A stretch of DNA of 64,000 nucleotides from Candidatus Falkowbacteria bacterium (lineage in GTDB: Bacteria; Patescibacteriota; Patescibacteriia; Patescibacteriales; UBA12465). The notes beneath the pieces were generated by a model. That model was given only the letters and a program-made list of their open reading frames with translations. It made no database searches and was not told the origin of the DNA. The stretch lies in assembly GCA_012800315.1 (NCBI GenBank), contig JAAZJO010000006.1:10172-74171 (forward strand), read 5' to 3'. This document shows positions 318-59,252 of the stretch, piece after piece. A program made the position numbers and the translations under genes. Each line of letters begins with the position of its first letter. Within the stretch, counting starts at the first letter, position 1.

Positions 318-375
318 ATTATTAAAAATTAAATTTCCTAAAAATAAAGCTTACTAATTTAAGCTTTTTATTAAT

Positions 376-6293: not shown

Positions 6294-7391
6294 TTAGGAA
6301 CGACGAAGCTTAGCTAAAACATTCTGATAAAACTCTAAATTATTCAAACTAGCTATTTTTTGACCTAATAATTCATTAAGTTTAAATAAATGGTGGAGAT
6401 AAGCTCGGGAATTAGTTTTTAGTTCTTTCAATTTACTATTTTTATTAATCGCTGAAAAATCAGTAGCAAAGCAGGCGTTATTAATATTAATGCTAGTATA
6501 CTTATCATTTTTTTCAGCAATAAAAAGTTTTCCGTGACGCCCCTCTCTAGTTGGGATAACACAATCAAAGATATCCCAACCCATCTCAGCGCAACGTTTA
6601 ATATCTGCCGGTGTTCCAATACCTAAAGCAAAACGCACAGCCTTTTCCGGAATAAAAGAAGCGGTCTTAGCTAAAACTTCAGCTAAAAAATTTCCTTCTT
6701 GATCAATTGGTCGCGCCCCAAAACCATAACCATCAAAACCAATTCGCACCAATTCCTGAGCGCATTTCTCACGTAAATCAATTTCTGCCCCGCCCTGAAT
6801 AACAGCAAACAAAAGAGGTTTTTTTACTCCTGTTAATTTTCTTTTCTTAATTTGTTTTAAATACTCCGCCTTACAACGTTTTGCCCAAGCAATTGTCCGC
6901 TTAACCGCTTTTTCTATCTCCGCCCGTGAAGATTCATTTGGCGGACAATCATCTAAACAAACCATCATATCTACACCTAAAGCAAATTGAATTTGAATTG
7001 ATTTTTCCGGACTTAATTCATGACGCGAACCATCCAAAGGTGATTTAAAAATAACTTTATCATCTCTAATCTCGCCCCACTGCTTATTTTTATAAAGCAA
7101 AGAAAAAACTTGAAAGCCACCAGAATCAGCTAATAAAGGTCCCGACCAATTCATAAAGCGATGAAGACCACCCGCTTTTTTTATAACTGCCAAACCTGGT
7201 TGTAAATAAAGATGAAAAGTATTAACTACTAAAACGGCTGTGCCGGTGCTTTTAACCTCATCATTAGTCATTAACTTAACAAAACCCCGCGTGGCATCCG
7301 GCATATAAAAAGGAGTATTTAAAACACCATGAGCAGTCTGTAAAACTCCCCGTCTAATTCCCGACTTGGTTGTTTTAATTAATTTAAACAT
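6294..7391 (-). CDS. tgt: tRNA-guanine transglycosylase family protein (divergent, no zinc site)
   Basis: TPFYMPDATRG, LADSGGFQV, VIQGG and FDCVIPTREGRHG...SRAYLHHL match TGT. The CxCxxC...H zinc motif is absent (see findings). Confidence 0.8.
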   Translation of the reverse strand: MFKLIKTTKSGIRRGVLQTAHGVLNTPFYMPDATRGFVKLMTNDEVKSTGTAVLVVNTFHLYLQPGLAVIKKAGGLHRFMNWSGPLLADSGGFQVFSLLYKNKQWGEIRDDKVIFKSPLDGSRHELSPEKSIQIQFALGVDMMVCLDDCPPNESSRAEIEKAVKRTIAWAKRCKAEYLKQIKKRKLTGVKKPLLFAVIQGGAEIDLREKCAQELVRIGFDGYGFGARPIDQEGNFLAEVLAKTASFIPEKAVRFALGIGTPADIKRCAEMGWDIFDCVIPTREGRHGKLFIAEKNDKYTSININNACFATDFSAINKNSKLKELKTNSRAYLHHLFKLNELLGQKIASLNNLEFYQNVLAKLRRS

Positions 7392-7395
7392 AAAA

Positions 7396-9402
7396 CTATT
7401 GCACCCTGCCAGACGAATTATTTAAATTAACAATATCATCATCCTCCAGCTTTGTTGTTTTAGCAGCCGTTTTTTTAGTAATAATACTGTTTGTTTCCGT
7501 ATCAGTTGCTTCAATCACCGAGCCAGGCGAAATAACCAAAATCTTATCATAATCATTCTCAGTAGGTACAACATTAACATTAAATTCCGCATCAGTGCGA
7601 TAAACTGAAACTGGCAAACGACCAATTTCCCAAACTACCTGACGAGTATTTTCATCATAATTTAAGCTACCAACATTAGTATAGGTCTTTTCATCAAAAT
7701 TAATATTAGCCGGCAAATTAAAAACTACTTTAACATCCGATAGCTCATGTAAATTATTTCTAACCACCCAATAAACTTTAAAACTAGTTTTTTCACCAAC
7801 TTTTGGTGGCAAAGGGCCAGAACCAACGGGAACATTATCTTCATTAAAATACAAAATCTTTTCACTCAAACTTAAATCACTATTAATCAAATTCTTTATC
7901 ACATTGCTTTTATTATCAGCCTGCTTCACCGCTTGATTATTGATACTATATTGAGCATAAGAATTAACTTCTAATTTCTTCCCCAGATCATCATCCTGAA
8001 AAGCTTGTAAATTAATTGAAAACTTTATTTCCCCTTTATCACCTGATTTAATTTCTTTCAAAGCGGGAATCTCATTCTTTGTCCAAGTAATTGATTGCCC
8101 ACGCACACTTCCCTTGTCTGTCATTTTTAAAGAAGCAAAATTAAGAAAATCGCTTTGTAAAACTGCCATAATCACTACATCCTTAAAAGAGTTCTCACCC
8201 TGATTATTATAGCTGATAACATAATCTAGGCTTTGTCCAAAATTAACAGCACTATTAGTTTTACTCTTATTAACCGATAATTCTAAATTTAAATCACTTT
8301 TTACTAATTCCGGTTGGAAAGATTTTTCCCAAAAAACATAAGCCTGCCCATCTTCCAGTTTCTTTTCTAAGCGAACAATAATTTTTGGATTAGCTATTTT
8401 AGTATTTACCCGATAAGTAATCGGAATTTCTTGACGATCCATTTCTTTATCTAAGCCACTAATTCGCCAGCTGGTTCCACCAACTTTAGTAATCACAATT
8501 TCTTTGGCTGAAGTGGCTATTGCTTCAGTTGAAGAACTAGCTTCATTAATAAGTTCGGGCAGAAGAGCTACATTAGTTTCTTCTGGCAAAGAAAAACTTA
8601 AATTAAAATCTCCAATATAATTATTTTCAACATTAAAGAAATTTAAAATCAATTCATTATCTTGATTTAAAAAAGCGGTATTAGCATAAACTAAATCCGT
8701 TCGCCAACCTAAACCGCTAATAACTGTTGAAGCTGAGGCCTCTTTTTTAAATTGGCTAGAATATTCTGAAGGCAAATAACTTAAACGAGCAATAACCACA
8801 TTAACTGAGTCTGGCTGACCAATTAATTTTCCAGTAATGCGTAAATTGGCACTACCCCCCGGCTCAAGATTAGGTAAATTCCAACCATAATTTCCACTAT
8901 CCGGCTCAATAGATCTATCAGTTACAATAAAATTTTCTGGATACTGTATTTCTAGATGAACATTTTTAAAAATAAATTTGCTTGGATTATGATAATTAAT
9001 TACATAAGAAATTTCCTCACCAACTAAAACTTTTTCTGGAGCACTAATACTTATTTCTAAAGAATTAATGTTATTATTTTTACTTAAAAAATATGTATAA
9101 GCAAAATAAGCAATCCCAATCAATAAAGTAAAGATGAGCAATCTCTTAAAAAAGCGAACAATCGCTAATTGACGACGTTTTATTTTCATTTTTTTAACAT
9201 CTACTAAATTGCCTTTTTTATCGGTATAAATTTCCGAGAGATTAGTATCTATTTCCTGACTACGCACCTCTCGCTTAATCGCCTTTTCAAAACTAGAAAC
9301 TTCCTTTTCAGTTGGGACAGGGCGTTCCACGAAAGCTGATAAACCAGAATACTCCTCTTTCACTGTGCGCAATATTTTTTTCACTTTTTTTTCTTTGCTC
9401 AT
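7396..9402 (-). CDS. Large single-pass membrane protein with repeated DUF11/CARDB-like beta-sandwich modules
   Basis: Lys-rich N-terminus, one TM helix (LLIFTLLIGIAYFAYTYF), then recurring modules such as GEEISYVINYHNPSKFIFKNVHLEIQYPENF, GQSLDYVISYNNQGENSFKDVVIMAVL and GEKTSFKVYWVVRNNLHELSDVKVVFNLP. Confidence 0.6.
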   Translation of the reverse strand: MSKEKKVKKILRTVKEEYSGLSAFVERPVPTEKEVSSFEKAIKREVRSQEIDTNLSEIYTDKKGNLVDVKKMKIKRRQLAIVRFFKRLLIFTLLIGIAYFAYTYFLSKNNNINSLEISISAPEKVLVGEEISYVINYHNPSKFIFKNVHLEIQYPENFIVTDRSIEPDSGNYGWNLPNLEPGGSANLRITGKLIGQPDSVNVVIARLSYLPSEYSSQFKKEASASTVISGLGWRTDLVYANTAFLNQDNELILNFFNVENNYIGDFNLSFSLPEETNVALLPELINEASSSTEAIATSAKEIVITKVGGTSWRISGLDKEMDRQEIPITYRVNTKIANPKIIVRLEKKLEDGQAYVFWEKSFQPELVKSDLNLELSVNKSKTNSAVNFGQSLDYVISYNNQGENSFKDVVIMAVLQSDFLNFASLKMTDKGSVRGQSITWTKNEIPALKEIKSGDKGEIKFSINLQAFQDDDLGKKLEVNSYAQYSINNQAVKQADNKSNVIKNLINSDLSLSEKILYFNEDNVPVGSGPLPPKVGEKTSFKVYWVVRNNLHELSDVKVVFNLPANINFDEKTYTNVGSLNYDENTRQVVWEIGRLPVSVYRTDAEFNVNVVPTENDYDKILVISPGSVIEATDTETNSIITKKTAAKTTKLEDDDIVNLNNSSGRVQ

Positions 9403-18340: not shown

Positions 18341-19630
18341 TTATTTATTTTTCCATTCTTTTTCCTGACGAACAATTAATTCAGCTGCTCTTTCCGGTTC
18401 AGCCATCAATTCCTTCACTACTTTTTCCATGCGCGCCCCCTGTGAACCTTTAACTAAAAGAATATCCCCGGCCTTAATCCGGTTTTGTAAAAATCTGCCC
18501 GCCTCTTCAGGTTTATCAAAATAAAAAATATAATCATCTTCCATACCGGCCTCCTTAGCACCCCTAATAAAATCACGCGCTCGCTCGCCAACCGCAATTA
18601 ATTGACTAATTTTATTTTCAACCACTGCCTTGCCTACTAACCGATGACCTTCCTCTGTATAACTGCCAATTTCTAACATATCACCCAAAACCGCATATTT
18701 ATTAGCCTTATCATCTATTCTCACCCTCTTTAAAACATTAAGCGCTAATAAAACTGCTTCCGGAGAAGAATTATATGTATCATCAATAATAAAAGTATTT
18801 TTGATACCTGGTAAAAAATTCATGCGCCCTTTTGGCAAACTAAAATCACTTAAAGCAGTTGCAATTTCTACTAAATTAAAATCAAAATATTGTGCTACTG
18901 CTGTCGCTGCCAAAGCCGCATAAATAGCTGTCTCAGCCATCACATTTTTCATATACACCGGCACAACCGAGCCATTATAATTTAATTTAAAGTGTATGCC
19001 TAAAATATCATAACCTTCTTTGGTAAAATTATAAACAATATCTTGAGCCCGAAAATTAACTCCTTCTTTTAGTCCATAACTTAAAGTCCTAGCTTTACTA
19101 AACTCGGTCATTTCTTTGACATACTGATTATCAAAATTAAGAACCGCTAAACCTTTAGGATTTAAGTTTTCAATCAATTCTTGTTTCTCTTTTTGAATAT
19201 TAGTAATTGAGCCAAAATATTCTAAGTGCGAATAACTAACCGCCGTGACCACGCCAATATCAACAGGCACAATCTCTAATAAATATTTCATATCGCCGGC
19301 ATGATCAACCCCCATTTCTAAAACCAAAACCTCAGGATATTTTTTATTTTTAATTATTAATAAGTAGCAAGCATATAAAAACACACCTAACCAACCAAAA
19401 AAACTTCTGCCCGGAGATTTCCGTCCAATAATCGTTAAAGGCAAACCAATTTCATTATTATAATTCTTAAATGTTGTCCGTACACGCAACTTTTGTTGCA
19501 AAACTTTATTAATCGCCTCTTTAGTGCTAGTTTTTCCAATTGATCCAGTAATGCCAATAACCACCGGCTGATATTTTTTAATAATCATCCGGGAAAACAT
19601 TTTTAATTTTAACTGCAATAATTTTTTCAT
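18341..19630 (-). CDS. murF: UDP-MurNAc-tripeptide--D-Ala-D-Ala ligase
   Basis: Mur ligase P-loop GITGSIGKTSTKE, the MurF-type NYNNEIGLPLT motif, and dcw context. Confidence 0.85.
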   Translation of the reverse strand: MKKLLQLKLKMFSRMIIKKYQPVVIGITGSIGKTSTKEAINKVLQQKLRVRTTFKNYNNEIGLPLTIIGRKSPGRSFFGWLGVFLYACYLLIIKNKKYPEVLVLEMGVDHAGDMKYLLEIVPVDIGVVTAVSYSHLEYFGSITNIQKEKQELIENLNPKGLAVLNFDNQYVKEMTEFSKARTLSYGLKEGVNFRAQDIVYNFTKEGYDILGIHFKLNYNGSVVPVYMKNVMAETAIYAALAATAVAQYFDFNLVEIATALSDFSLPKGRMNFLPGIKNTFIIDDTYNSSPEAVLLALNVLKRVRIDDKANKYAVLGDMLEIGSYTEEGHRLVGKAVVENKISQLIAVGERARDFIRGAKEAGMEDDYIFYFDKPEEAGRFLQNRIKAGDILLVKGSQGARMEKVVKELMAEPERAAELIVRQEKEWKNK

Positions 19631-19631
19631 A

Positions 19632-21623
19632 TTAATTTCTGGATTTAGGAATTTGATAATACTTTAAAATAAAATCAGCAATATCTTTCCACAAAGGCAC
19701 AACCGAACCTTCCGCATAAACCACATCTTTAGGATTATCCATTTTAGTTAACATCACAAAAGCTGGACTTTCAATCGGAGCAATGCCGACAAAAGTATGA
19801 ATATACTGATCTTTTAAATAACCACCCGGCCCTGGAATTTGGGCTGTACCAGTCTTTCCGCCAATATAATAACCTTCAATATAGGCTTTACTAGAATGTC
19901 CTTTTTCAACCACATTAGTTAACATCGCTGACATAGTGGCAGCTGTTTGCGCTGAAATCACTCGTCTAATTTGCTGTGGCTGAATATCTTCACGTTTACC
20001 ATCACTACGCACAATACTTTCAACAATGTGTGGCTTCATCATTACTCCCTTATTAGCAATCGCTTGATAGGGCATGATCATTTGTAAAGAAGTAACGGCA
20101 ATTCCCTGACCAAAGGAAGCAGTCGCTGCATCTATTTCTTTAATTTTTGGTTTTAATAAATTATTAATATTACCAGAACTTTCTGAACCCAATTCAATGC
20201 CTGTCTTTTCACCAAAACCATAATTCTTCACATAATCAGCAAAGACCGTTGGGCCAGCTTGACGCATAGCAAAAATTGAACCTGTATTTAAAGAGTTTTC
20301 CAAAACATAATTCATATCAACCATCCCATGACTACCTTTAGAACTAAAATCTGAATTACGAATCGGCTTATTCCAACCGGCAATCATAATTTCTCCGGTA
20401 TCATTAAAAAGAGTTGCTGGAGACACTTTATTCTGATCAATCGCGATTGACATCGTCACTGTTTTAAAAACCGAACCTGGTTCATACTGCTCAAAAATCA
20501 CTGGATTATTAAAAACTCCGATATCAGAAACATCTTTATAATTATTCGGATCAAAATCGGGCACAGAACACATGGCAATAATTGCTCCAGTTTTCGGATT
20601 CATCACCACTACACTGCCACTATCAGCATCATGTTTTTTTACTGCTTCCTTTAATTTTTCACAAGCAACAAATTGAATATTACGATCTATCGTTAAAATT
20701 AAATCAGAACCATTTTCCGGTTTCACATATTCACGATTATTAACAATAACTGTTTCACTTTTACCAGCTTTCTCTGATTTTAAATAGCCAGCTTTGCCAG
20801 CCAATTCTTCATTAAAAAAATCCTCTAAACCATAGCGGCCGACTTCTTGATTATCAACATTGCTAACAAAACCAATAATATGCGAGCCAATTTCTTTTTC
20901 CGGATAATAACGATGGGGCCTTAAATCAAAACCAAACCCCGGAAGATAAAATCTAGTTGCTGATACTCCCTTCTTATAATTAACTTGTCCATTGCGCAAT
21001 TCTAAATCATCAACTGAAATCGGCGAACTAGTTGAGGCTAGAAAAGCAAATAATTTTAATAGCTCTTCAGTCCCTAATTTCTTATCTAATGATTCATAAG
21101 GATCACCTGGTTTATCAAGTTTTTTTAAATATTTTTGAATTATTTGCTCTTTGCTTGAGGAGGCAAATTCAGCAAACTCTTTTCCAGTTAATAAGTTGGC
21201 TAAAGAAGAAGAGGAAACAGTTATTCCCTTAGTCTTTAATTCTTCAACAAATTTTTCTTCAAGTAAAGGTTCATCAAAAAAAGTATATAGCTTCTCAGCC
21301 ATTTCCTGTGGATTGCTTATCTCTTTAGGCACAGCATAAACTGAAGCAAAATCTTTATTAGTCGCCAAAGGATAAAGTTTTTCTGTTCCATTAATTACTT
21401 CTCTTAAATAAATTCTGCCTCTTTCTGGTTCTAGTTGACTAAAAACTTCATGCTGAGAAGAAGCTAGAGCAGTATAAAAATCACATTGCCCAATTTGGAT
21501 AGAAAATAATTTATAAATTAAAGCACCGCACAACAAAAAAACAATCGCCACCACCAAGCGGAGACGATTAAGATTTATTTTATTTTTCTCTGACTGTCCC
21601 TTGTTTTTTGTTTCGCGCCACAT
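19632..21623 (-). CDS. ftsI: Penicillin-binding protein 2/FtsI-type transpeptidase
   Basis: N-terminal TM helix plus SxxK (GSVFKT), SxN (NSLNTG) and KTG (GKTGTAQ) motifs. I chose the start at the internal ATG 21621-23 (MWRETKNK) to avoid a 53-nt overlap with ftsL. The ORF-track start is 21683. Confidence 0.85.
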   Translation of the reverse strand: MWRETKNKGQSEKNKINLNRLRLVVAIVFLLCGALIYKLFSIQIGQCDFYTALASSQHEVFSQLEPERGRIYLREVINGTEKLYPLATNKDFASVYAVPKEISNPQEMAEKLYTFFDEPLLEEKFVEELKTKGITVSSSSLANLLTGKEFAEFASSSKEQIIQKYLKKLDKPGDPYESLDKKLGTEELLKLFAFLASTSSPISVDDLELRNGQVNYKKGVSATRFYLPGFGFDLRPHRYYPEKEIGSHIIGFVSNVDNQEVGRYGLEDFFNEELAGKAGYLKSEKAGKSETVIVNNREYVKPENGSDLILTIDRNIQFVACEKLKEAVKKHDADSGSVVVMNPKTGAIIAMCSVPDFDPNNYKDVSDIGVFNNPVIFEQYEPGSVFKTVTMSIAIDQNKVSPATLFNDTGEIMIAGWNKPIRNSDFSSKGSHGMVDMNYVLENSLNTGSIFAMRQAGPTVFADYVKNYGFGEKTGIELGSESSGNINNLLKPKIKEIDAATASFGQGIAVTSLQMIMPYQAIANKGVMMKPHIVESIVRSDGKREDIQPQQIRRVISAQTAATMSAMLTNVVEKGHSSKAYIEGYYIGGKTGTAQIPGPGGYLKDQYIHTFVGIAPIESPAFVMLTKMDNPKDVVYAEGSVVPLWKDIADFILKYYQIPKSRN

Positions 21624-21630
21624 AGTTATT

Positions 21631-21972
21631 CTATTTACGAGCAACGACTGAAGGAATAACTGATAAATATTCAATTTCACCAATAGCCACCATGTTTAAT
21701 TTTTGTGCGCGAGTGCTTAAAGAATAATATGATTGAAGATTATTGATCTGTTCTTCATTATCAAGTTTCTCGCTAGCCAAAACTTCAGCCTGGGCCTTCA
21801 GTTCTTTTAAAGCAAATCCTTTAACCGCCAAGTCACTAGCATTAACTAAATAACAAACCCCGAGTAAAGAAATACAAAAGACTAAAAAGAGATTAAACTT
21901 TTTTAAATTTATTTTTTTACCACGACTTGATTGTTGGGTTGGCGCTTGATAGCAATTAATAACCTTGGTCAT
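21631..21972 (-). CDS. ftsL: FtsL-like cell-division protein (single TM helix plus coiled coil)
   Basis: 113 aa with one TM helix followed by a heptad-like region. Its position between rsmH and ftsI is the canonical FtsL slot. Confidence 0.55.
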   Translation of the reverse strand: MTKVINCYQAPTQQSSRGKKINLKKFNLFLVFCISLLGVCYLVNASDLAVKGFALKELKAQAEVLASEKLDNEEQINNLQSYYSLSTRAQKLNMVAIGEIEYLSVIPSVVARK

Positions 21973-22005
21973 AAAATGATTACAAAATTTATATCAATTT
22001 AAAAA

Positions 22006-22896
22006 TTATCCTATTTTTTCAGCGGCCCGAAGTTTGGCACTACGCGCTCGGGAATTATTCACCATTTCTTCCGCAGTCGGTATTAAGGGTTTTTTAGTTA
22101 ATATTTTAATTTCAGGATTATCTTTAAAAAATTGTTTAACAATTCTATCTTCTCCACTATGAAAAGAGACTACTACTAAACGACCATAAGGCTTTAACAA
22201 ACTAACTGCATCAGGCAAAACTGCTTCTAAAACTTTTAATTCCTCGTTAGTCTCCATTCTCAAAGCTTGGAAAATTCTAGTTGCGGGATGAATTTTGGAG
22301 TGATAACGAAAAGGGGTAACTTTTTCAATAATACTCACTAAATCATGGGTTGAGGCAATTCTCTTTTTTTTACGGGCCTCCACAATTTCCTTAGCAATGC
22401 GATAGGCATATCTTTCTTCGCCATATTCTTGAAAAATTCTGGTTAATTCTGGCAACGAATAAGTGTTCACTATATCTGCCGTTGATCTCTCATTCTTTGG
22501 ACCAAAGGACATGTCTAATGGTCGCTCACCTTTAAAAGAAAAACCCCGCGCCTCATCATCAAGCTGAGCTGAAGATAAACCAAGATCAAAAACAATACCA
22601 TCAAATTTAGCTTCCGGAGATACCTGTTCGCTCACCACCGCTTTTAAATTTTTAAAGTTATCATTAACTAAAACAATATTTTCTAATTTTTGCTGGGCAA
22701 TTAATCTAGTTGCATTTTTAATAGCTAATTCATCCAGATCAATCGCAATTACTTGTCCCTGCTCACCCACCTCTTTTGCTAAAGCAATCGTATAACCAGC
22801 TCCACCCAAAGTACAGTCAATATATTTTTTTCCCGGACGAGGATCTAAATAGTTCAGAATTTCTTTAAGCATGACCGAAACATGAAAATAGGCCAT
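22006..22896 (-). CDS. rsmH: 16S rRNA (cytosine1402-N4)-methyltransferase
   Basis: HVSVMLKE start, DCTLGGAGYT SAM motif, FDLGLSS, and its position after mraZ. Confidence 0.92.
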   Translation of the reverse strand: MAYFHVSVMLKEILNYLDPRPGKKYIDCTLGGAGYTIALAKEVGEQGQVIAIDLDELAIKNATRLIAQQKLENIVLVNDNFKNLKAVVSEQVSPEAKFDGIVFDLGLSSAQLDDEARGFSFKGERPLDMSFGPKNERSTADIVNTYSLPELTRIFQEYGEERYAYRIAKEIVEARKKKRIASTHDLVSIIEKVTPFRYHSKIHPATRIFQALRMETNEELKVLEAVLPDAVSLLKPYGRLVVVSFHSGEDRIVKQFFKDNPEIKILTKKPLIPTAEEMVNNSRARSAKLRAAEKIG

Positions 22897-22901
22897 AGAT
22901 T

Positions 22902-23333
22902 TTAAATTCCTAAATCACCTAACTCTTCAGCAATCGCATTACTATTTTTCTCACTAACTGTCTTATATTTACGCCAAGCATCTGCATCCCAAATTTCCAA
23001 ATGATTATATAAACCAGCAATAACAATTTTCTTTTTTAATCCAGAAAAAGTTCGTAGATATTCTGGCAAAGTTATTCGCCCCTGATTATCAAAATCAAGA
23101 TCCATCGCGCCAGCTAACATGTGACGACTAAAAGTTCTGGCTTTCGCCTGACTAATCGGTAAAGCAGCTAACTTTTTCGCAATATTCTCAAATTGTTCTT
23201 TGGAATACAAAAATAAGCAGTTATCTAAACCTTTGGTAACAACTGCTCCCTTTTTTAAGATAGCCCGAAACTTAGCCGGAATAGCTAAGCGTCCTTTATC
23301 ATCTAAATTGTGACTGTATTCCCCGATGAACAT
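22902..23333 (-). CDS. mraZ: Transcriptional regulator MraZ
   Basis: MFIGEYSHNLDDKGRLAIPAKFR and a second DxxGR(I/L)xLP repeat (DNQGRITLPEYLR). 143 aa. Confidence 0.92.
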   Translation of the reverse strand: MFIGEYSHNLDDKGRLAIPAKFRAILKKGAVVTKGLDNCLFLYSKEQFENIAKKLAALPISQAKARTFSRHMLAGAMDLDFDNQGRITLPEYLRTFSGLKKKIVIAGLYNHLEIWDADAWRKYKTVSEKNSNAIAEELGDLGI

Positions 23334-38112: not shown

Positions 38113-38475
38113 TTATCTTATCTTAGTAATCACAAAATAAACTAGGGCGTAGGAAGAAAAAATCACTGCCAAACCAACTGCTGACCAAACCAAGATGTCT
38201 TTCCCTTTTTTAACCTTATCTGAACTACCGCCAGACAACATCCAAGTAAGTCCGCCAAAAATAAACATGAGTAAAGCGATAGAGCCAACTATACCCATAA
38301 TCGCATTAATCACATTACCAATTAATTTTTGCGGGGTAGTGTCATTTCCCAGAGGATTCTCCAAACAAACAGTTCCATCTCCGGGACAATCCGCCCTCAC
38401 AACTGAAATTGGGGCAGCTAAAGATAAAAAAGCAATAACTAATAATAAACAAATAGAAATTAAATGTTTTTTCAT
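38113..38475 (-). CDS. T4SS-pilin-like (TrbC/VirB2-like) small secreted membrane protein
   Basis: Signal peptide, NPLGNDTTPQKLIGNVINAIMGIVGSIALLMFIFGGLTWMLSGGSSDKVKKGKDILVWSAVGLAVIF. This is the two-helix pattern I recall for the CPR 'T4SS pilin' family. The assignment is from memory only. Confidence 0.5.
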   Translation of the reverse strand: MKKHLISICLLLVIAFLSLAAPISVVRADCPGDGTVCLENPLGNDTTPQKLIGNVINAIMGIVGSIALLMFIFGGLTWMLSGGSSDKVKKGKDILVWSAVGLAVIFSSYALVYFVITKIR

Positions 38476-49327: not shown

Positions 49328-51640
49328 CTAATAGCTTGGAGATTCTATTAAGTTCTCCTCTGCCGTTTCCACTGGAGCTTCCCCTAAAACTTCCGTTGAA
49401 GTTCCTGCAACAGGCTCTGCTGGAGTATCTATTAAATTGTCTCTTGGAGTTTCTGTAACGGCTTCTTTTATACCTTGTTCTAATGTTTCAGCTGTAGGCT
49501 CTAAAATTGCCCCTGCACTATCCTCGGGAAGATTCTCAGTTACTGGAGCTATAATGTAATCGCCCTCATCCTCAATTAGGACCAAGCTTTTAACTAAACT
49601 TAAATCAAGTAGGCTATTTATCTTTAAAAATTTATTGGAAAAAGTAAATAGATAATCATTAATATAAAAACTTCTCTTCACCACACTATCAGAATAGTCA
49701 TGATTAAGAAAACTGCTAAGTTTAGCCGCTGGAGAAATATGATCTATCTTTTCTCTTAAAACAAATTTATTATCAATAATATTAAAAATCAAAGAACCAG
49801 AGAAAACAGTTTGCTTATTCTCTTTTAGCACAATCGGCAAAGATAGCAAGTTCTTTCCTCCTGAATACAAAAAGGATTTATGGTCTTCAAAAATAATTGA
49901 ATCACTACCCACATCGCCAAAAATTGCAGAATTAAGTTCTTTTGGTTTCGCTAAATCAGTAAAATCAAATAAAGAAATTTTTAAACCCTTGGCTTTAATT
50001 AAACCACTGTCATCATCTTGCATATTATAACCAACGCCAATTAATTTATGACCATTCTGATCAATCGGATAAAAATAAGTTGAGGCATCTGGAATGCGCA
50101 GGGCGCCTGAAACTGTTGGCTTAGTAGGATCATCTAAACTGATAATATAAAGAGGGTCACTTTGTTTAGTAGTAATCAAATAGGCTCTATTTCCTAAAAA
50201 ACGAGCAGCGTATATTTTTTCGTTAGTTACTAAGTTTTCCAAGCGACCAACTACCTTAAGTTCATTATCAAGAACAAAAATATTACTATATGGCTCAGAT
50301 TGTGTCTCAGCTAAACGCGCTCCCACTGAACTTTGAGCAGTCGCTATCCGAAAATAACCATCCTCCTCATTCATTGAAAGCTCATTCAAAATTTGACCAT
50401 TTACTTCAGCAAAACCACGATATTCAAAATTTTTCCCATTGAGGGCTATTTTATAAATAGTCGTTTTTCCTGTATCAGCTGATCTAGCCATTAACTTTTC
50501 TTTCATTTTCTCACTAATCTTCAACTGAATGGCCTTTGCTTCTTCCGTCCCTAAATTAGCTAAATAATTATCCATTAAAGCAGCAACCTTCACCTTCTTT
50601 TCAGCCGTATTTAAAACATAATCAGCTACCGCCTCAATTTCAGTTATTTTATTCTGTTCCTCAGCACTTAAATCTGCCAATATTAATTCTCTTTTAGCTG
50701 ATTGTTCTAAATCATATTCATCTATTGCCTCAGTATATGTAAGGTAAACATTTTTTTGAGCAATATATATAGCTTGCTCATCATTAATTAAATATGACTG
50801 CCCACTGATTGGTTCAGTCTTATCACTAATATTGATAGCTACTATATTAAAATAATGAAAGGAGTTATACGGAATATCAAAATAAAAAACTTCCGGCGCA
50901 AAACAATCGCTAGCTACACTGCAATCATTAGATAAAGTAAAGCCCTGACTAGTTGCCTGTGGGATTAAAGATTTTCCCTTTTTATAATCAATAAAACTAT
51001 CGGTAAATAAATAAACATAATCTCCATTTAAACGAGCCTCCCGATAATTGCCTTCAAAACCTAGTTCTCGCACTAAAGTTGGATTAGTCGGATTAGCTAA
51101 ATCAAAAACTTTTACAGACACTTTTGCTTGATCAGCAAATTCAAAAACAACTAAATTATTTCCGCTGATAAAAATATTTTGTGGCTGCGATTCAAAAGTT
51201 ATTGTGCTAATCACCTCGGCTTCAGAAGCTGGGTTAATTTTAATTATTTTTAATTCATCACGAAGCAAGGCATAAACATAATTGCCACCAAACTTAACTA
51301 TATCAGCCTCATCAAGTCCTGGTACTTGAATATTTATTGGCGAAAAATCTTCAGTCGTCTCAGTCCTATTAATTACTTCTCTTGCTATTCCACTAGTACT
51401 CCCTTGCTTAGCACTCTTTTCTTCAAAAAATTTTTCCAATCCCTGATAATCACTAAACTTCATCAATTGTTTAGTCTTAACCGGAACATCATCAGCAGAA
51501 ATTTCTTTTGTTTTTTCCTTTTTTACCTCCACAGAGGTAGCGGAATTTTTTTTCTGCCAAGGAAAAGTACAACCACTCACCAAAACAGCTGAGATAAGAA
51601 TAATAAAAGAAAATTTTATTATTTTTTTAAACATAGACAA
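49328..51640 (-). CDS. Lipoprotein with beta-propeller domain (COG4880-like secreted beta-propeller)
   Basis: Lipobox LVSGC. INIQVPGLDEADIVKFGGNYVYAL matches the motif I recall for the 'beta propeller domain' family. Acidic, low-complexity C-terminal tail. Confidence 0.65.
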   Translation of the reverse strand: MSMFKKIIKFSFIILISAVLVSGCTFPWQKKNSATSVEVKKEKTKEISADDVPVKTKQLMKFSDYQGLEKFFEEKSAKQGSTSGIAREVINRTETTEDFSPINIQVPGLDEADIVKFGGNYVYALLRDELKIIKINPASEAEVISTITFESQPQNIFISGNNLVVFEFADQAKVSVKVFDLANPTNPTLVRELGFEGNYREARLNGDYVYLFTDSFIDYKKGKSLIPQATSQGFTLSNDCSVASDCFAPEVFYFDIPYNSFHYFNIVAINISDKTEPISGQSYLINDEQAIYIAQKNVYLTYTEAIDEYDLEQSAKRELILADLSAEEQNKITEIEAVADYVLNTAEKKVKVAALMDNYLANLGTEEAKAIQLKISEKMKEKLMARSADTGKTTIYKIALNGKNFEYRGFAEVNGQILNELSMNEEDGYFRIATAQSSVGARLAETQSEPYSNIFVLDNELKVVGRLENLVTNEKIYAARFLGNRAYLITTKQSDPLYIISLDDPTKPTVSGALRIPDASTYFYPIDQNGHKLIGVGYNMQDDDSGLIKAKGLKISLFDFTDLAKPKELNSAIFGDVGSDSIIFEDHKSFLYSGGKNLLSLPIVLKENKQTVFSGSLIFNIIDNKFVLREKIDHISPAAKLSSFLNHDYSDSVVKRSFYINDYLFTFSNKFLKINSLLDLSLVKSLVLIEDEGDYIIAPVTENLPEDSAGAILEPTAETLEQGIKEAVTETPRDNLIDTPAEPVAGTSTEVLGEAPVETAEENLIESPSY

Positions 51641-51754: not shown

Positions 51755-53329
51755 TTAATTATCTAAAGAAAATTCACAACCACAAAATTTTTGCCGATAA
51801 AGACCCAATTCTTTAGCCAATTCTTGTGAGCGCTGATAACCATTATTAGCCTGAAAATCTATATCCAAAAATTTAGGACCATTTTCAGCAGTTAAAGATA
51901 AGCTAATCTTTTTAATAGCCTCTGTATCTTTATAAGGACTGAGTAAAAGACTGGTGCTAAAATAAGTAAATTTCTTTTTTTGAGCTAAAAGCGCTGTTCT
52001 ACTTAAACGATCACGATAACAAAGATGACAACGCTTCCCTCTTTCTGGATCAGTTTCCCGGCCCTTGACTTTCTCTAACCAAGCCTCATGTTTATAAGGT
52101 TCAACAATTAAGGGAATGGCTAGCTTAGTCGCCACAAATTTAACCGCTGCTAAACGTTTATTATATTCTTCAAGAGAATTTAAATTTGGATTATCAAAAT
52201 ACCAAGTTAGTTTATATTGTGGTAATAAAATATCACGACTAATATAAGAAGCGCACGGTGCACAGCAAACATGAAGTAGGAGGGATGGCTTTTTATTTTT
52301 ACGATCCATAAACCAAAAGGTAACTACCAAGCCAAACATAATCACCACTAATAAAATTAAAGCTAAAAATTTCCCCCGACTTTGTAAAAACAAACCACTT
52401 AAACCAAATGACAAAGCTAAAAAATAAAAAAGTAAAACAGTCCCCCTTTGTCCTAAACCAAGATCAAGAAGGCGATGGTGTAAATGTTTTTTATCGGCAC
52501 TCTTAAAAGGGTTTTGCTTATTTATTAAGCGACGTAAAATTGTCCAAAAAACATCAAGAATCGGAATACCCATAATTAAAAGAGCAATCGCTATTTTCCC
52601 TCCAGAAATAATTGCTAAAACTCCCAAGATATAACCAAGTAATAAAGAGCCACCCTCTCCGAGAAATATTTTAGCCGGATGCCAGTTAAAAATTAAAAAA
52701 CCAAGAGCTGTTCCGGTTAATAGAATTGAGGCAAAGGCAATATCTGGTTGAAAATAGCGAGTTGTAGTGGTAAATAAAAAAATAACAAAACCACCAATGG
52801 CTGTTATTCCTGTTACCAAGCCATCTACCCCATCTAGCAGCTTAGTGGTGTACATCATTCCTAAAAGCCAAAAAGCAATTAGCAGCGGGCTGATAATGGC
52901 TAGTGAGTTTAAATCAATGTAGCCACCAGTAAAGGGATTGGTAATTTTTTCAATTTCCACACCTCCCAAAATAACTACCGCAATCGCCAGTAAGGGAAAA
53001 ATTATTTGCTTTCTTGGAGGTAAATTATATTTATCATCCAGCGCACCGCCAATCACTAAAATTAAAGCACCTATAAAAAAAGCCAGAAGATGTGACCAAC
53101 GCAGATTACCTGATAAAAAATGCCGCGCAAAAATAAATAGCAAAATAAAATAAGCTAAAAAAATAGCCATCCCACCTAACAGCGGAATTGGCTGACGATG
53201 AATCTTGCGTCCGTGACCACCTTCATCGGGCTGATCTAAAATATTCAAAGAAATAGCTGCTTTTCTAACTAAAACAGTTATCCCGGCTGTGAGTACTAAA
53301 CTAGTAAAAAAAATAAAAAAATAAAACAT
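51755..53329 (-). CDS. Fusion protein: WecA/TagO-type polyprenyl-phosphate HexNAc-1-P transferase (MraY/GT4 family) plus C-terminal QueH-like (DUF208) epoxyqueuosine reductase domain
   Basis: N-terminal about 340 aa: multi-TM with PLLGG, DDKYNL, KLLDGVDGL, NWHPAKIFLGEGGS and HLHHRLLDLG. C-terminal 184 aa from the in-frame Met at 52309: LLLHVCCAPCAS...KRCHLCYRDRL...FCGCEFS (QueH Cys pattern). I placed the start at ATG 53327-29 (MFYFFIFF), 1 nt after the upstream stop. Confidence 0.75.
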   Translation of the reverse strand: MFYFFIFFTSLVLTAGITVLVRKAAISLNILDQPDEGGHGRKIHRQPIPLLGGMAIFLAYFILLFIFARHFLSGNLRWSHLLAFFIGALILVIGGALDDKYNLPPRKQIIFPLLAIAVVILGGVEIEKITNPFTGGYIDLNSLAIISPLLIAFWLLGMMYTTKLLDGVDGLVTGITAIGGFVIFLFTTTTRYFQPDIAFASILLTGTALGFLIFNWHPAKIFLGEGGSLLLGYILGVLAIISGGKIAIALLIMGIPILDVFWTILRRLINKQNPFKSADKKHLHHRLLDLGLGQRGTVLLFYFLALSFGLSGLFLQSRGKFLALILLVVIMFGLVVTFWFMDRKNKKPSLLLHVCCAPCASYISRDILLPQYKLTWYFDNPNLNSLEEYNKRLAAVKFVATKLAIPLIVEPYKHEAWLEKVKGRETDPERGKRCHLCYRDRLSRTALLAQKKKFTYFSTSLLLSPYKDTEAIKKISLSLTAENGPKFLDIDFQANNGYQRSQELAKELGLYRQKFCGCEFSLDN

Positions 53330-53330
53330 A

Positions 53331-56024
53331 TTACAACGCCTGAGCTTTCTCAATCTCAATTTCTGCCCGTGAGTTAATAACTACTGTATCCCGACGTTTT
53401 AATTCGCCACTCAGTATCCTGTGGGCAATAATATTTTCCACTCTATCTTGAAGTAAACGACGTAAGGGCCGAGCTCCGAATTTAGGATCATAACCCTCTT
53501 GAGCTAAAATAGCCACCCCATCTTTATCAGCTTTAAAATAAATACCTTTTTCTCCCAGATTCTTTTTAATCTTTTTCAACATTAGAGTAGCAATATCAAT
53601 AACATTATCCTTAGTCAAAGGTTTAAAAACAATAATGCCATCAAAACGATTAATCAACTCTGGCCGCATGTATTTATTTAACTGATTATCAATCAATTCC
53701 TGCTTAATAATATTAATTTTGGTCTTAGCCTTAATTTGTTCTTGAATATATAAAGCGCCGATATTTGAAGTAGCGATAATAATTGATTCTGAAAAATTAA
53801 TTGTTCTGCCCTGGCCATCCGTTAAACGTCCATCATCAAATAATTGTAAAAAAAGATGTAAAATATCTGGATGCGCTTTTTCAATTTCGTCTAATAAAAT
53901 CAGAGAAAACGGTTTTTTACGAACTGCTTCAGTTAAATAGCCTAAAGTACCATCAACATCGCCGATCATTTTGCGGACGCTGTCTGGATGCTGATATTCA
54001 CTCATATCTACTCTAATTAAATAATCAGCATCGCCGAAATAAATTTCAGACACTGCTTTAGCTAGTTCCGTTTTACCAACACCAGTTGGTCCTAAAAATA
54101 AAAAGCTGGCAATCGGCCGATCTTCATCTTTCAAAGCAGTGCGAGCACGACGCAAACTAGCGGCCACCGCCGTAACCGCTTCTTCTTGACCAATTAAACG
54201 TTTATGAATTTCTTTTTCCAAAGTTAATAATTTTTGGCTTTCATCAATAGTAATTTTATTAACTAAAATGCCAGTCATTTCTTCTACCGCTAAAGCCACC
54301 TCTTCACCACTACAAAAATTTTTATCTGGATTATTCTGTCTATTTTTCGCAGCAATTAAGGCAGCTTTTTCTAATAAATTAATCGCCTTAAATGGCAAAG
54401 CCTTGTCATGCAAATAACGTTCAGACATTTTCACCGCTTGCTCTAAAGCGCTATAAACAATAAAAATATCATATTTTGATTCTAAATAACCAACTTTACT
54501 CTCTAAAATCTGGATAGTTTGATTAAAATCAGGCTCCTTAACCCCAACAGTGGTCATTACACTACCCAAAGCTTTATTTTCAATATATTTAACATAGTTT
54601 TCAGTTGTGGCTGAGGCTAAACATAAAAGATGACGACGACTAAGAGACTCCGCCAAAACTTCTGATAAATCTAAACTTTCTCGACTACCCGCGCTAATAC
54701 CAATTAAATTTTCAATATTATCTATATAAAGAATAATATTTCTTGAACGATTAATCTCATTAATGATCATTAATAAACGCTCCTCAGCCATCGCCGGATC
54801 AGCACCACTCACTAAACGTGAAACATCTAATTCAACCAAACGTTTATCTTTTAGAAAATCCGGCACTTTTTCCTCAACCATTAAACGCGCTAAGCCGTGA
54901 ATAATAGCACTCTTGCCCACGCCAGTTGAACCAACTAAAAGAACACCACTATGCCCCCCAGTAAAAGCTTCAAAAATAGCTCTAATTTCTTTTTTTCTAC
55001 CAACACAAATTTCATTTAAATCATATTTAGATTGAATGGTTAAATCATGAGAAAAATGGTCTAATGTCGGTGTGGCAATCGCAGTATAGGCTCTATCCAT
55101 ACCTGTGCCCGGCTTTAAAATCGCTAAACGACGATAATTATTATAATTATCTAGCATAATCTGATTAACTCTAAACCACTCAACCGTATTCATCAATTTA
55201 TCAGCATCAACTTCTAATTCATACAATATTTCTGCTAATCGCGGATCTCTTTCATAGCAAAATGGAATTAAATCAATAATTTTTATATTATCCTGCTCTA
55301 AATTAAAAGCTTCAATAAAAGATAAAATTAAAACTTCCTCTAAAGACGAGGATAGTTGGCTGCGACCAGAAAACTTATCCGCCGGATTAATTAATTGACG
55401 ATCTAATAATTCAACTAATTTTTTAGCATTAACATTAAGTCTAATAAAAAGCGCTTGTACTTCTTTTTTCTTCAAAAGCACTCTAAAAAGATGAATGGCT
55501 GTCACCTCAGCTTGTTTTAATTTATCAGCCAACAAAAAAGCTTCCTCAATCGCCTCAATTACTTCATCACTACAAGCCTTAGCTACATTATATCTTTTCG
55601 GACTATTTGAATTTTTATCAGCTGAAGAGGCAAAATTATGATAATTTATTTTTTTAACACTCGCCTTGGCTTCACTTTTTTTATAAAACAGAAATAAATC
55701 AAACCACAAAGAAAGTAAAAAACAAAAAATAAGCGGATCTTTTTTAGCCCAAAAAAAGAAAATACGTATTGGGTTATCTAACAAAACAGCTTGATTACGT
55801 AAAATCCATAAAGCAAAAGCCAGCCAACCAGCAAAAATAATCAACCAAGTAAAAAACTCTAAAATCTTCTCTAATCTCTTTTTAGAGTTTTCTAATTTAA
55901 TTAATGACCACTTTAAATCCTTTTCCCAATACAAAAACCTACCCAAAAACCAAGTGCCGGGGCGACCACTAGAAGAATCAGGGGTAAAAACAATTTGCTC
56001 AGGTTTTGTTTTTTCAATTATCAT
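53331..56024 (-). CDS. Membrane-anchored Clp/Hsp100-family AAA+ protein (two AAA modules, degenerate D1, no M-domain)
   Basis: Two N-terminal hydrophobic helices and two Clp_N-like repeats. D1 has GSTGVGKS but ILYIDNIENL in place of Walker B. D2 is intact: GPTGVGKTELAK, LILLDEIEKAHPD and GARPLRR. Confidence 0.8.
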   Translation of the reverse strand: MIIEKTKPEQIVFTPDSSSGRPGTWFLGRFLYWEKDLKWSLIKLENSKKRLEKILEFFTWLIIFAGWLAFALWILRNQAVLLDNPIRIFFFWAKKDPLIFCFLLSLWFDLFLFYKKSEAKASVKKINYHNFASSADKNSNSPKRYNVAKACSDEVIEAIEEAFLLADKLKQAEVTAIHLFRVLLKKKEVQALFIRLNVNAKKLVELLDRQLINPADKFSGRSQLSSSLEEVLILSFIEAFNLEQDNIKIIDLIPFCYERDPRLAEILYELEVDADKLMNTVEWFRVNQIMLDNYNNYRRLAILKPGTGMDRAYTAIATPTLDHFSHDLTIQSKYDLNEICVGRKKEIRAIFEAFTGGHSGVLLVGSTGVGKSAIIHGLARLMVEEKVPDFLKDKRLVELDVSRLVSGADPAMAEERLLMIINEINRSRNIILYIDNIENLIGISAGSRESLDLSEVLAESLSRRHLLCLASATTENYVKYIENKALGSVMTTVGVKEPDFNQTIQILESKVGYLESKYDIFIVYSALEQAVKMSERYLHDKALPFKAINLLEKAALIAAKNRQNNPDKNFCSGEEVALAVEEMTGILVNKITIDESQKLLTLEKEIHKRLIGQEEAVTAVAASLRRARTALKDEDRPIASFLFLGPTGVGKTELAKAVSEIYFGDADYLIRVDMSEYQHPDSVRKMIGDVDGTLGYLTEAVRKKPFSLILLDEIEKAHPDILHLFLQLFDDGRLTDGQGRTINFSESIIIATSNIGALYIQEQIKAKTKINIIKQELIDNQLNKYMRPELINRFDGIIVFKPLTKDNVIDIATLMLKKIKKNLGEKGIYFKADKDGVAILAQEGYDPKFGARPLRRLLQDRVENIIAHRILSGELKRRDTVVINSRAEIEIEKAQAL

Positions 56025-56600: not shown

Positions 56601-59252
56601 ATGTTTAATAAATTTACTGATAAATCTCAAGAAGCTATCATTAATTCTCAAATTCTTGCCTCTGCTTATGGTCAAGCAAATATTGAAGCTCTACACATCC
56701 TCTTAGCTCTACTCCAACAAAATGAAAGTTTAATTAAACCAATTTTAGAGAAGATGAAAATTGATCCAGAAATTATTGAAGATTATACAATTAATGAAAT
56801 AAAAAAACTGCCACGTGTAAAAACCACTGTTAACAGTGGTCCAGTGCAAGCTGTTTCTGGCACCGCTGAAACAGCTGTTATTCTAGAGCGCGCTCAAAAA
56901 GAGGCGGCTAGCATGAATGATGAATTTATTTCTACTGAACACATTTTATTAGCTCTCATTGGTGTCGTTTCTCCAGCCCAAACTATTCTTTTAAATTTTA
57001 AAGTTGAATATAGTACTGTTAAACAAATATTAAAAGAATTGCGCGGTTCCCAAACAATCACCGATCCTTTTCCAGAAAATAAATATAAAGTTTTAGAAAA
57101 ATACACCACTAATTTAACAGAATTAGCGCGCCAAGAAAAACTTGATCCAGTTATTGGTCGCGATGAAGAAATCCGCCGCATCATGCAAGTGCTTTTACGT
57201 CGCACTAAAAATAATCCAGTATTAATTGGTGAAGCGGGTACTGGAAAAACAGCTATCGTGGAAGGTTTAGCCCAAAGAATAATCGCTGGTGATGTACCAG
57301 AAAATTTAAAAAATAAAGAAATTGTTTCTTTAGATTTAGGCTCTTTAGTGGCTGGCGCAAAATTTCGTGGTGAATTTGAAGATCGTCTCAAGGCTGTTCT
57401 TAAAGAAGTAAAATCACAAAATGGACGCATTATTTTATTTATTGATGAGCTGCACACCTTAATCGGAGCTGGCGCTTCGGAAGGTTCTATGGATGCTTCT
57501 AATATGTTAAAACCGGAATTGGCCCGCGGCGAATTATGTACTATTGGCGCAACAACTACTAAGGAATATCAAAAATATATTGAAAAGGATGCCGCTCTAG
57601 AAAGACGCTTCCAACCAATCATGGTTAATGAACCAAGTATTGAGGACACTATTTCTATGTTGCGCGGCTTAAAAGAAAAATATGAGGTCCATCACGGTGT
57701 TCGCATTACCGATAACGCTGTGATTGCGGCGGCTAAACTATCTAATCGCTACATCAGCGATCGCTTCTTGCCAGATAAGGCGGTTGATTTAATTGATGAA
57801 GCCACCTCTTCTTTAAGAATGGAAATTGATTCTATGCCTGATGAGCTTGACCAGCTAAAAAGAAAGATTAAACAGCTTGAATTAAATAAAGCTGGTATTA
57901 TGACTACTGAAAAAAAATCCAGTAAATTAAAAAATATAAATTCAGAATTAGCTAAACTGAAAGAAAAAGCTACTCAGCTAGAATTACATTGGAATAATGA
58001 AAAAAATATCATCTCACAAATAAGAAATTCTAAAAAAGAAATAGATGAATTAAAAATTAAAGCCGAAATTGCTCAACGTCAAGGAACTGATTTAACTGAA
58101 GTTGCTAAAATAAAATATGCTTTAATTCCTGAATTAGAAAATAAAATTAAAAAATCACAAGAAGAATTACTTAAGATTCAGAAAAAAGGACAAAGAATTT
58201 TAAAGGAAGAGGTTGATGAGGAAGATATTGCTAAGGTAGTGGCGCGCTGGACTGGCATTCCGGTTAACCGCATGCTTCAAGATGAAATTAGAAAATTAAG
58301 TGAAGCAGAAACTGAACTTAACAAAGAAGTAATTGGGCAAGAAGAAGCTATTAAAGCAATTTCTAATGCTTTACGTCGTTCTCGCGCTGGCATTAATGAA
58401 GAAAAAAAACCAATCGGCTCCTTTCTCTTTGTTGGGCCAACTGGTGTTGGTAAAACGGAATTAGCTAAAAGCTTAGCGCGCTTCATGTTTAATGATAAAA
58501 AAGCCTTAATCCGTTTAGATATGAGCGAATTCATGGAAAAACATTCGGTAGCTAAATTAATTGGTTCCCCACCCGGCTATATTGGACATGATGACGGTGG
58601 TCAATTAACTGATAAAGTTCGTCGTCATCCCTACAGCGTTGTCTTGTTTGATGAAATTGAAAAAGCACACCCAGACATCTTTAATGTGCTACTCCAAATT
58701 TTAGATGATGGTCGCTTAACTGACTCCAAGGGCCGAACAGTCAATTTTAAAAACACCATCATTATTATGACTTCTAATCTAGGCAATGAAATTATTAAAC
58801 AATATTCTATTGGTTTTTCCGATAACAGCGATAAAAAGGAAGCTGGTCAGCTGCGCGCTGAAGAAATGAAGGAAAAAATTGATAAAATATTGAAAGATAA
58901 TTTTAAATTAGAGTTTTTGAATCGTATTGATGAAATTGTTCTCTTTAGAAGTTTAACACCAGCCGGTCTAGAAAAAATTGTTGATTTAGAATTAGCTAAA
59001 GTAGAAAAACGTTTACATAATAAAAATATTAGCCTACGTATCAGTCCCAAAGTTAAAAAACTTCTGGCTGAAAAAGGTTACGATATTACTTATGGTGCTC
59101 GCCCACTTAAACGTATTATCCAAACAATGATTTTAGATGAACTAGCTTTAGAAATAATTGAAGGGAAGGTTAAAGAAGGTGATAAAATTAAAATTGATCT
59201 AGGCAATACTGAAAAAATTACAATATTAGTTAAACAACCCGCTAAAAAATAA
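56601..59252 (+). CDS. clpB: Chaperone ClpB (Hsp100 disaggregase)
   Basis: Clp_N repeats. D1 has GEAGTGKTA and ILFIDELHTL, followed by a long coiled-coil M-domain. D2 has GPTGVGKTELAK, VVLFDEIEKAHPD and GARPLKR. Confidence 0.95.
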   Translation: MFNKFTDKSQEAIINSQILASAYGQANIEALHILLALLQQNESLIKPILEKMKIDPEIIEDYTINEIKKLPRVKTTVNSGPVQAVSGTAETAVILERAQKEAASMNDEFISTEHILLALIGVVSPAQTILLNFKVEYSTVKQILKELRGSQTITDPFPENKYKVLEKYTTNLTELARQEKLDPVIGRDEEIRRIMQVLLRRTKNNPVLIGEAGTGKTAIVEGLAQRIIAGDVPENLKNKEIVSLDLGSLVAGAKFRGEFEDRLKAVLKEVKSQNGRIILFIDELHTLIGAGASEGSMDASNMLKPELARGELCTIGATTTKEYQKYIEKDAALERRFQPIMVNEPSIEDTISMLRGLKEKYEVHHGVRITDNAVIAAAKLSNRYISDRFLPDKAVDLIDEATSSLRMEIDSMPDELDQLKRKIKQLELNKAGIMTTEKKSSKLKNINSELAKLKEKATQLELHWNNEKNIISQIRNSKKEIDELKIKAEIAQRQGTDLTEVAKIKYALIPELENKIKKSQEELLKIQKKGQRILKEEVDEEDIAKVVARWTGIPVNRMLQDEIRKLSEAETELNKEVIGQEEAIKAISNALRRSRAGINEEKKPIGSFLFVGPTGVGKTELAKSLARFMFNDKKALIRLDMSEFMEKHSVAKLIGSPPGYIGHDDGGQLTDKVRRHPYSVVLFDEIEKAHPDIFNVLLQILDDGRLTDSKGRTVNFKNTIIIMTSNLGNEIIKQYSIGFSDNSDKKEAGQLRAEEMKEKIDKILKDNFKLEFLNRIDEIVLFRSLTPAGLEKIVDLELAKVEKRLHNKNISLRISPKVKKLLAEKGYDITYGARPLKRIIQTMILDELALEIIEGKVKEGDKIKIDLGNTEKITILVKQPAKK

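Follow-up and report, generated by a model that had tools for sequence, protein, structure and literature searches.

QueH is known as a small soluble enzyme of transfer RNA (tRNA) modification, and a bacterial tRNA-modifying enzyme embedded in the membrane would, to our knowledge, be unusual. How, then, did a QueH domain become the C-terminal part of a polytopic membrane protein, and does this attachment serve a function? The protein in question is encoded on the minus strand of a 64,000-nucleotide (nt) stretch of DNA, here called the window, which covers positions 10,172 to 74,171 of contig JAAZJO010000006.1 (assembly GCA_012800315.1) of a Candidatus Falkowbacteria bacterium. Candidatus Falkowbacteria are ultra-small Patescibacteria, which cannot yet be grown alone. 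A single gene at 51755..53329 joins a sugar-1-phosphate transferase module of the Glycos_transf_4 family (GT4) to QueH, and this GT4-QueH fusion is a stably inherited trait of one Candidatus Falkowbacteria clade of about 80 related species. From the comparisons of sequences and structure models given below, we consider it fairly probable that this real, inherited fusion is made as one bifunctional inner-membrane protein, with modules that act independently and a QueH of the canonical kind.

The open reading frame (ORF) begins with ATG, has no internal stop and encodes 524 amino acids (aa); an alternative TTG start lies at 53359. Pfam assigns residues 82-242 to Glycos_transf_4 (PF00953; E 1.7e-29, 103.3 bits, cutoff 27) and residues 350-522 to QueH (PF02677; E 2.3e-58, 197.6 bits, cutoff 23.5), and the QueH match spans profile positions 1-173 of 175, i.e., a full-length domain. 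A preliminary description of this DNA had proposed one uninterrupted ORF with a GT4 module and a QueH module, and both halves of that proposal are borne out, with hidden Markov model support for the DUF208/QueH identity of the C-terminal part that is very strong. The motifs quoted there were all located, for the transferase PLLGG (49-53), DDKYNL (98-103), LDGVDGL (165-171) and HLHHRLL (282-288), and for the QueH cysteines HVCCAPCAS (353-361), CHLCY (434-438) and FCGCEF (515-520).

The fusion recurs far beyond this one contig. A Candidatus Falkowbacteria metagenome-assembled genome (MAG) encodes a protein, NLZ74503.1 (GX917_01175), with 100% identity to the product, and the identical protein occurs on 62 contigs. 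Both Pfam domains are present in 120/120 best homologues (62-100% identity) from NCBI, JGI, ENA and Logan assemblies. We further compared 82 related loci, 80 from a scan of species-representative genomes (all Falkowbacteria or Patescibacteria MAGs) and two others. The domain pair forms a single complete in-frame ORF at 77 of them, is in frame and ended by contig edges at three, and is split by a stop at only two (L009 and L018), where a TAA in the linker is followed by an ATG two codons later; the lowest pairwise identity among the related fusion loci is 48%. Both L009 and L018 sit within the fused relatives, and neither is the closest relative of the other. The fusion thus withstands the check named in the preliminary description, whether related genomes consistently show two separate genes. 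The split QueH scores 202.9 bits on the Pfam QueH model, and since this score is kept, the halves can work as separate proteins. At the re-split positions (about 11048 in L009, about 1720 in L018), the ATG opens a QueH of standalone length. Fused full-length representatives number only two in a library clustered at 50% identity; nearly all other top matches are GT4 proteins that stand alone, are 340-370 aa long and stop just behind transmembrane (TM) helix 11 (TM11). Hence, the fusion is lineage-specific.

The single ORF might instead be an assembly or frameshift artefact, or QueH might normally be made separately from Met341 in the linker. The in-frame ATG at 52307-52309 and the two related species with a stop and restart in the linker would fit such a reading. 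The same architecture appears, however, in independent assemblies from four sources and as intact ORFs at more than nine tenths of the loci compared, by which an artefact is rejected. Met341 is indeed present, as the preliminary description had noted in raising a separate start, but Met occurs in only 8/120 homologue linkers, and separate translation of QueH from this non-conserved residue is likewise rejected. Furthermore, as had been stated, the frame stays open between the halves, and the sequence before Met341, read by eye, holds no Shine-Dalgarno-like stretch. Taken as a whole, we regard this explanation as extremely improbable.

The N-terminal module is a member of the WecA/TagO/MraY (PNPT) superfamily. 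Residues D98, D99, K163, D166, D169, H282, H284 and R286 are invariant among 51 aligned fused proteins. The HLHH motif sits in place of the HIHH motif of E. coli WecA, and E225 stands where the 'FMGD' motif of WecA and MraY has an Asp. In an AlphaFold2 (AF2) model, the GT4 part matches MraY and DPAGT1 chains (Foldseek E about 1e-9, TM-score on the target 0.57-0.76). The best NCBIfam match of the N-terminal half is WecA (TIGR02380) at 111.4 bits, below the equivalog cutoff of 326.05, and the MraY equivalog (TIGR00445) reaches 67.9 bits, below its cutoff of 192.05. Since both scores fall far short, the module cannot be filed as either. The earlier label 'WecA/TagO-type' therefore stands as a resemblance in the number of TM helices, the HxHH motif and the best match, and goes too far if read as membership of WecA, whose equivalog cutoff is missed; an identity as MraY is unsupported. 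WecA is known to have 11 TM helices and a cytoplasmic C-terminus, as predicted for the GT4 module. The module would start a lipid-carrier-linked glycan of the cell envelope at the cytoplasmic face, as a putative polyprenyl-phosphate N-acetylhexosamine-1-phosphate transferase whose sugar specificity is suggested only.

QueH (DUF208, PF02677) is a cobalamin-independent epoxyqueuosine reductase. The metal-ligand pattern is complete in the fused domain, with CCxxC/D at the N-terminus, CxxC in the middle and CxC at the C-terminus. The ligand roles we take from the titles of mutant PDB entries (C9S and D13N of T. maritima QueH). None of C355, C356, C359, C434, C437, C516 and C518 varies among the 51 fused homologues or among 79 standalone QueHs, which come from diverse bacteria. 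Cys359 aligns with Asp13 of T. maritima QueH, and since 100% of the 79 standalone QueHs have Cys at this position, Cys is what is usual in the family. In the standalone proteins 39 positions are conserved at 90% or more, and the fused group conserves every one of them. The domain in the window deviates from the standalone consensus at four of the 39, conservatively (I367, D427, S476 and F515), and keeps every metal-ligand and polar signature residue of QueH. On the same Pfam model, the crystallised T. maritima QueH scores 190.4 bits, compared with 197.6 for the fused domain, and the QueH part of the AF2 model superposes on T. maritima QueH (7LC5) with a TM-score of 0.90 and a root-mean-square deviation of 1.5 A over 177 columns. 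On this comparison of sequences and models, both modules look functional. Because the family ligands and signature residues are completely conserved, the fused QueH has most likely kept its activity, the reduction of epoxyqueuosine to queuosine on tRNA, for which it would use a [4Fe-4S] cluster and an extra iron. At the level of the family, PF02677 appears as an alternative to QueG because it is phyletically anti-correlated with the QueG domain DUF1730 (PMC6822775).

Hydropathy together with the positive-inside rule predicts 11 TM helices with an N-out/C-in topology, which places the DD, LDGVDG and HLHH loops on the cytoplasmic side, as expected for the GT4 family. In the AF2 model (pLDDT 85.7; pTM 0.70, a value that is uninformative on any fixed packing of the two domains), the TM11 helix (320-344) is followed by four unstructured residues (345-348) and the first QueH strand at 349. 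The spacer between TM11 and QueH measures 8-37 residues from Trp339 in the 120 homologues and is rich in Lys/Arg. Moreover, at nine related loci the ORF is longer by 245-270 aa and continues into one further TM helix, TSP3 repeats and an L,D-transpeptidase (YkuD). As YkuD works outside the cell and is separated from QueH by one TM helix, QueH should lie inside, a conclusion independent of the topology prediction. These triple fusions (L034, L038, L048, L050, L052, L060, L066, L074 and L077; proteins P0041, P0073, P0102 and P0120, 731-794 aa) fall into two groups by nearest-neighbour identity. The membrane tether of QueH put forward in the preliminary description agrees with all three lines, and the QueH domain is predicted to be cytoplasmic, 8-37 residues from the membrane, with the short basic linker bringing a canonical QueH into the cytoplasm. 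The variable length of the linker and its rarely present Met speak against any conserved internal start and any fixed active-site geometry. Because the linker varies in length and two lineages re-split the gene, the GT4 and QueH modules probably work independently. The coordinates of these features and of the genes discussed below are given in Table 1.

Table 1. Positions in the window of the GT4-QueH gene, its parts, its neighbours and the TGT gene.
Feature	Position	Strand	Basis or remark
Whole fused GT4-QueH gene	51755..53329	-	524 codons and TAA stop at 51755-51757
N-terminal polyprenyl-phosphate sugar-1-phosphate transferase module, aa 1-344	52298..53329	-	Pfam, hydropathy, AF2, fold match
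Predicted TM helices, first six	aa 3-21, 50-68, 79-97, 108-126, 143-161, 168-186	-	hydropathy
Predicted TM helices, last five	aa 196-214, 234-252, 251-269, 297-315, 321-339	-	hydropathy
Asp98-Asp99, cytoplasmic DDxxN motif	53033..53038	-	invariant in 51 homologues
Asp166...Asp169, LDGVDG motif	52823..52834	-	invariant in 51 homologues
HLHH, aa 282-285	52475..52486	-	H282, L283 and H284 invariant in 51 homologues
Junction/linker MDRKNKKP, aa 341-348, with non-conserved Met341	52286..52309	-	sequence comparison
C-terminal QueH domain, aa 349-522, predicted cytoplasmic	51764..52285	-	Pfam; PDB 7LC5 E 4.8e-27; fold match
Cys355, Cys356, Cys359 (HVCCAPC)	52253..52267	-	conservation
Cys434, Cys437 (RCHLC)	52019..52030	-	invariant
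Cys516, Cys518 (FCGCEF)	51776..51784	-	invariant
Upstream ClpB-like AAA+ gene	53331..56024	-	TAA stop one base before the fusion ATG
Downstream beta-propeller protein, conserved syntenic neighbour	49328..51640	-	synteny
TGT, only other queuosine-pathway gene in the window	6294..7391	-	profile and alignment

The surroundings of the gene indicate how the fusion may have arisen. In relatives the syntenic order is ClpB-like, GT4(-QueH), YkuD in some, beta-propeller, PDZ protease, phosphoglycerate kinase and enolase. The YkuD gene found between the fusion and the beta-propeller gene in some relatives is absent here, where the gap is 114 base pairs (bp); in L001, YkuD is a separate gene 3 bp downstream of the fusion. 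Of particular interest is L176 ('Ca. Parcubacteria', GCA_002869265.1), in which the same locus encodes a GT4 that is 59% identical and is overlapped by 14 nt by a VanZ-QueH gene (region 6932..8927). The linker that precedes QueH in this VanZ-QueH, 'KPSLLLHVCC', is identical to that in the window, and 'DRKNKK', the upstream part of our linker, is similar to the tail with which standalone GT4 orthologues naturally end. In L171, at the same syntenic locus, and in L172, a standalone VanZ follows GT4 and shows homology to the VanZ part of VanZ-QueH proteins. Related Patescibacteria have about 30 VanZ-QueH clusters, at two different loci (L084-L087; P0261, P0270-P0300), and some copies adjoin mgsA, where other relatives have a standalone QueH. 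In a neighbour-joining tree of QueH domains, calculated without support values, the GT4-QueH domains group into one clade that lies among those of VanZ-QueH.

Because of the L176 arrangement with its identical linker, the GT4 and VanZ neighbours in L171 and the nested tree, the fusion most likely arose by a small deletion of VanZ between neighbouring genes. In the proposed order of events, QueH would already have been fused to the small membrane protein VanZ in the ancestor of the clade, the VanZ-QueH gene would have come to lie immediately downstream of the GT4 gene, and deletion of the VanZ part would have brought the GT4 tail and the QueH linker together. The orthologous GT4 is elsewhere fused to DUF192, to GT2 or to the upstream ClpB-like gene, the last in the relative P0153 (1231 aa). 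Since GT4 fuses with several neighbours, the locus seems prone to such fusions. The stop of the ClpB-like gene and the start of the fusion lie so close together that the two genes probably share an operon. The ClpB-like protein (897 aa) may be membrane-anchored, since near its N-terminus it shows two hydrophobic segments (about aa 56-74 and 97-114) in place of a clear Clp_N domain; a canonical ClpB is encoded divergently at 56601..59252.

Does the repeated anchoring of QueH reflect selection for the anchor itself? Two unrelated polytopic anchors, VanZ and GT4, are used across the whole clade, the first in the roughly 30 VanZ-QueH clusters at two loci. The anchor is retained over 48-83% sequence divergence, and QueH stays close to the membrane, by the four residues of the AF2 model and the spacers of the homologues. 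Reasons for anchoring could be a membrane-associated supply of reductant or iron-sulfur clusters, or co-regulation of queuosine modification with envelope growth. However, unanchored QueH exists in close relatives, both standalone (L088 and L089) and split (L009 and L018), and the length of the linker is unconstrained. Moreover, the same GT4 gene fuses with whichever gene adjoins it, and one ancestral VanZ fusion followed by one deletion suffices without selection. We therefore hold selected anchoring to be unlikely, if worth keeping in view, beside the reading of an inherited fusion of independent modules.

The nature of the two anchors raises a further point. VanZ proteins, whose predicted targets are polyprenyl-diphosphate head groups, are often neighbours of, or fused with, uridine diphosphate N-acetylglucosamine/N-acetylmuramic acid (UDP-GlcNAc/MurNAc) lipid transferases (PMC12419801). 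VanZ and GT4 are hence functionally and genomically linked, so that QueH was joined in turn to two linked lipid-carrier enzymes. The fusions of QueH to VanZ and GT4 could thus reflect a functional tie to the envelope rather than neutral history. The state of the queuosine pathway also has to be weighed. Apart from QueH, the preliminary description had named a divergent tRNA-guanine transglycosylase (TGT) as the sole queuosine-pathway gene of the window, and this holds. The protein scores above the NCBIfam equivalog cutoff for Tgt (352 vs 306.75 bits) and keeps the three catalytic Asp residues. All four zinc ligands (E. coli C302, C304, C307 and H333) are missing, and GARPIDQ stands where the preQ1-pocket motif of E. 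coli (213-219) is GGLAVGE; a frameshift as the cause of these odd motifs was rejected. By tblastn with E. coli QueA, Patescibacteria QueA and Patescibacteria YhhQ as queries, none of which gave a match, queA was not found in the window and its 10 kb left flank (about 74 kb of the genome), nor in about 1.6 Mb of related Falkowbacteria-type loci, which sample only about 85 kb of genome space. The searched loci cover a small part of the genome and absence of queA from the genome is therefore not implied. Together, the joining to two lipid-carrier enzymes, the altered TGT and the queA searches weigh against a QueH that acts canonically and is fused by neutral history.

Some side observations concern the same pathway. 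A metagenomic TGT relative (L091, 45% identical) has also lost the zinc site and keeps GGLSVGE, and the metagenomic TGT matches listed are mostly canonical and come from other bacteria. On a Paceibacteria-like metagenomic contig (L092, 7979..11125), yhhQ, queA and tgt form a compact cluster whose TGT is canonical, a sign that other Patescibacteria salvage queuosine precursors. queA is frequent elsewhere in Patescibacteria, with at least 120 Patescibacteria QueAs among the matches listed. None of these bears the name Falkowbacteria, which speaks neither for nor against queA in this lineage.

If the envelope tie were functional, QueH might have been recruited as a reductase acting on a polyprenyl- or nucleotide-linked intermediate, and no longer on tRNA, in a pathway started by GT4 and edited by VanZ. 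A different substrate for this domain had also been raised in the preliminary description. Recruitment would account for the attachment of QueH to two lipid-carrier enzymes (PMC12419801), for its place in the triple fusions, flanked by GT4 on one side and an extracellular L,D-transpeptidase on the other, and for the altered base pocket of TGT alongside the missing queA matches in the loci searched. Yet the domain has kept its family-conserved residues, including the non-ligand polar positions N380, N382, E388, R392, H414, W417, E429, R433, S464, K467, Y511, R512 and Q513. Its Pfam score also exceeds that of the characterised T. maritima enzyme, a TGT above the equivalog cutoff is present, and queA is widespread elsewhere in the phylum. 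We judge such a change of substrate to be improbable. Much the same low probability attaches to the broader idea that QueH was welded to VanZ and then to GT4 for functional coupling to lipid-carrier or envelope chemistry, possibly with a non-tRNA substrate; such a coupling would stand in a lineage with a queuosine pathway that is itself non-canonical, marked by a zinc-less TGT with an altered base pocket and a queA not yet found. A canonical QueH in an inherited fusion of independent modules thus remains the reading that we prefer.

Elsewhere in the window, a dcw-type cluster (18341..23333, minus strand) comprises mraZ, rsmH, a small ftsL-like ORF, a penicillin-binding protein and a Mur ligase, and runs directly into rhamnose genes (RmlD-like, RmlA-like) and a GT2 gene. 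mraY was not detected anywhere in the window. In other Patescibacteria (L174 and L175; proteins P0149, P0151, P0164, P0168, P0204, P0208 and P0245), a GT4 ortholog (about 45-52% identical) lies within the dcw cluster, directly after mraZ, rsmH and an ftsL-like gene, with a DUF192 domain either following it or fused to it. A 120-aa ORF at 38113..38475 (minus strand) matches a type IV secretion system pilin family (PF18895, E 2e-13).

Both domains of GT4-QueH are well-known families, and the architecture is already in public databases, where records label the 524-aa protein either 'QueH' or 'WecA'; either name hides half of the protein, and annotations should be read with this in mind. The fusion is unmentioned in the searchable full-text literature, and a seeming link between QueH and isoprenoids in work on archaeal lipids proved false, arising from the author name 'Quehenberger'. 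What the locus adds is that the tether of QueH is ancient and heritable in one clade of Patescibacteria and uses two different lipid-carrier enzymes as anchors. If the preferred reading is true, this would be a clean, datable case of how multifunctional proteins form in streamlined genomes, by fusion of neighbours and an anchor swap by deletion. If the tether is functional, it would point to an unrecognised link between iron-sulfur/queuosine chemistry and envelope synthesis. With an atypical TGT encoded in this very window, the condition of the queuosine pathway in this lineage is open to a direct test.

Compared with known systems, the GT4 module shares the Glycos_transf_4 domain, the cytoplasmic DD, LDGxDG and HxHH motifs and a matching fold with transferases of the WecA/TagO/WbpL type and with MraY/DPAGT1. 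In contrast to WecA and MraY, it carries a C-terminal enzyme domain. Other fusions of the same GT4 family, GT4-DUF192, GT4-GT2 and ClpB-like-GT4, likewise join it to an adjacent gene, but their partners are envelope-related or without known function, and none is an RNA-modification enzyme. The fused QueH is 37% identical to T. maritima QueH (PDB 7LC5, 7LC7 and 9DEU) over a full-length match with the same predicted fold. All six cysteines of that enzyme are present, and the seventh ligand position has Cys instead of Asp13. The usual QueH is a soluble single domain of about 175-200 aa, whereas here the domain forms the C-terminal end of a 524-aa protein with 11 predicted TM helices, a difference in architecture that leaves its place in the QueH family untouched. 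The closest parallels are the VanZ-QueH proteins (UniRef100_A0A2M6WU74 and PLX21930.1), which combine a QueH of the same clade with an N-terminal polytopic module and a short basic linker; their anchor, however, is the VanZ (lipocone) domain, with 4 helices and about 120 aa, and not a 344-aa transferase.

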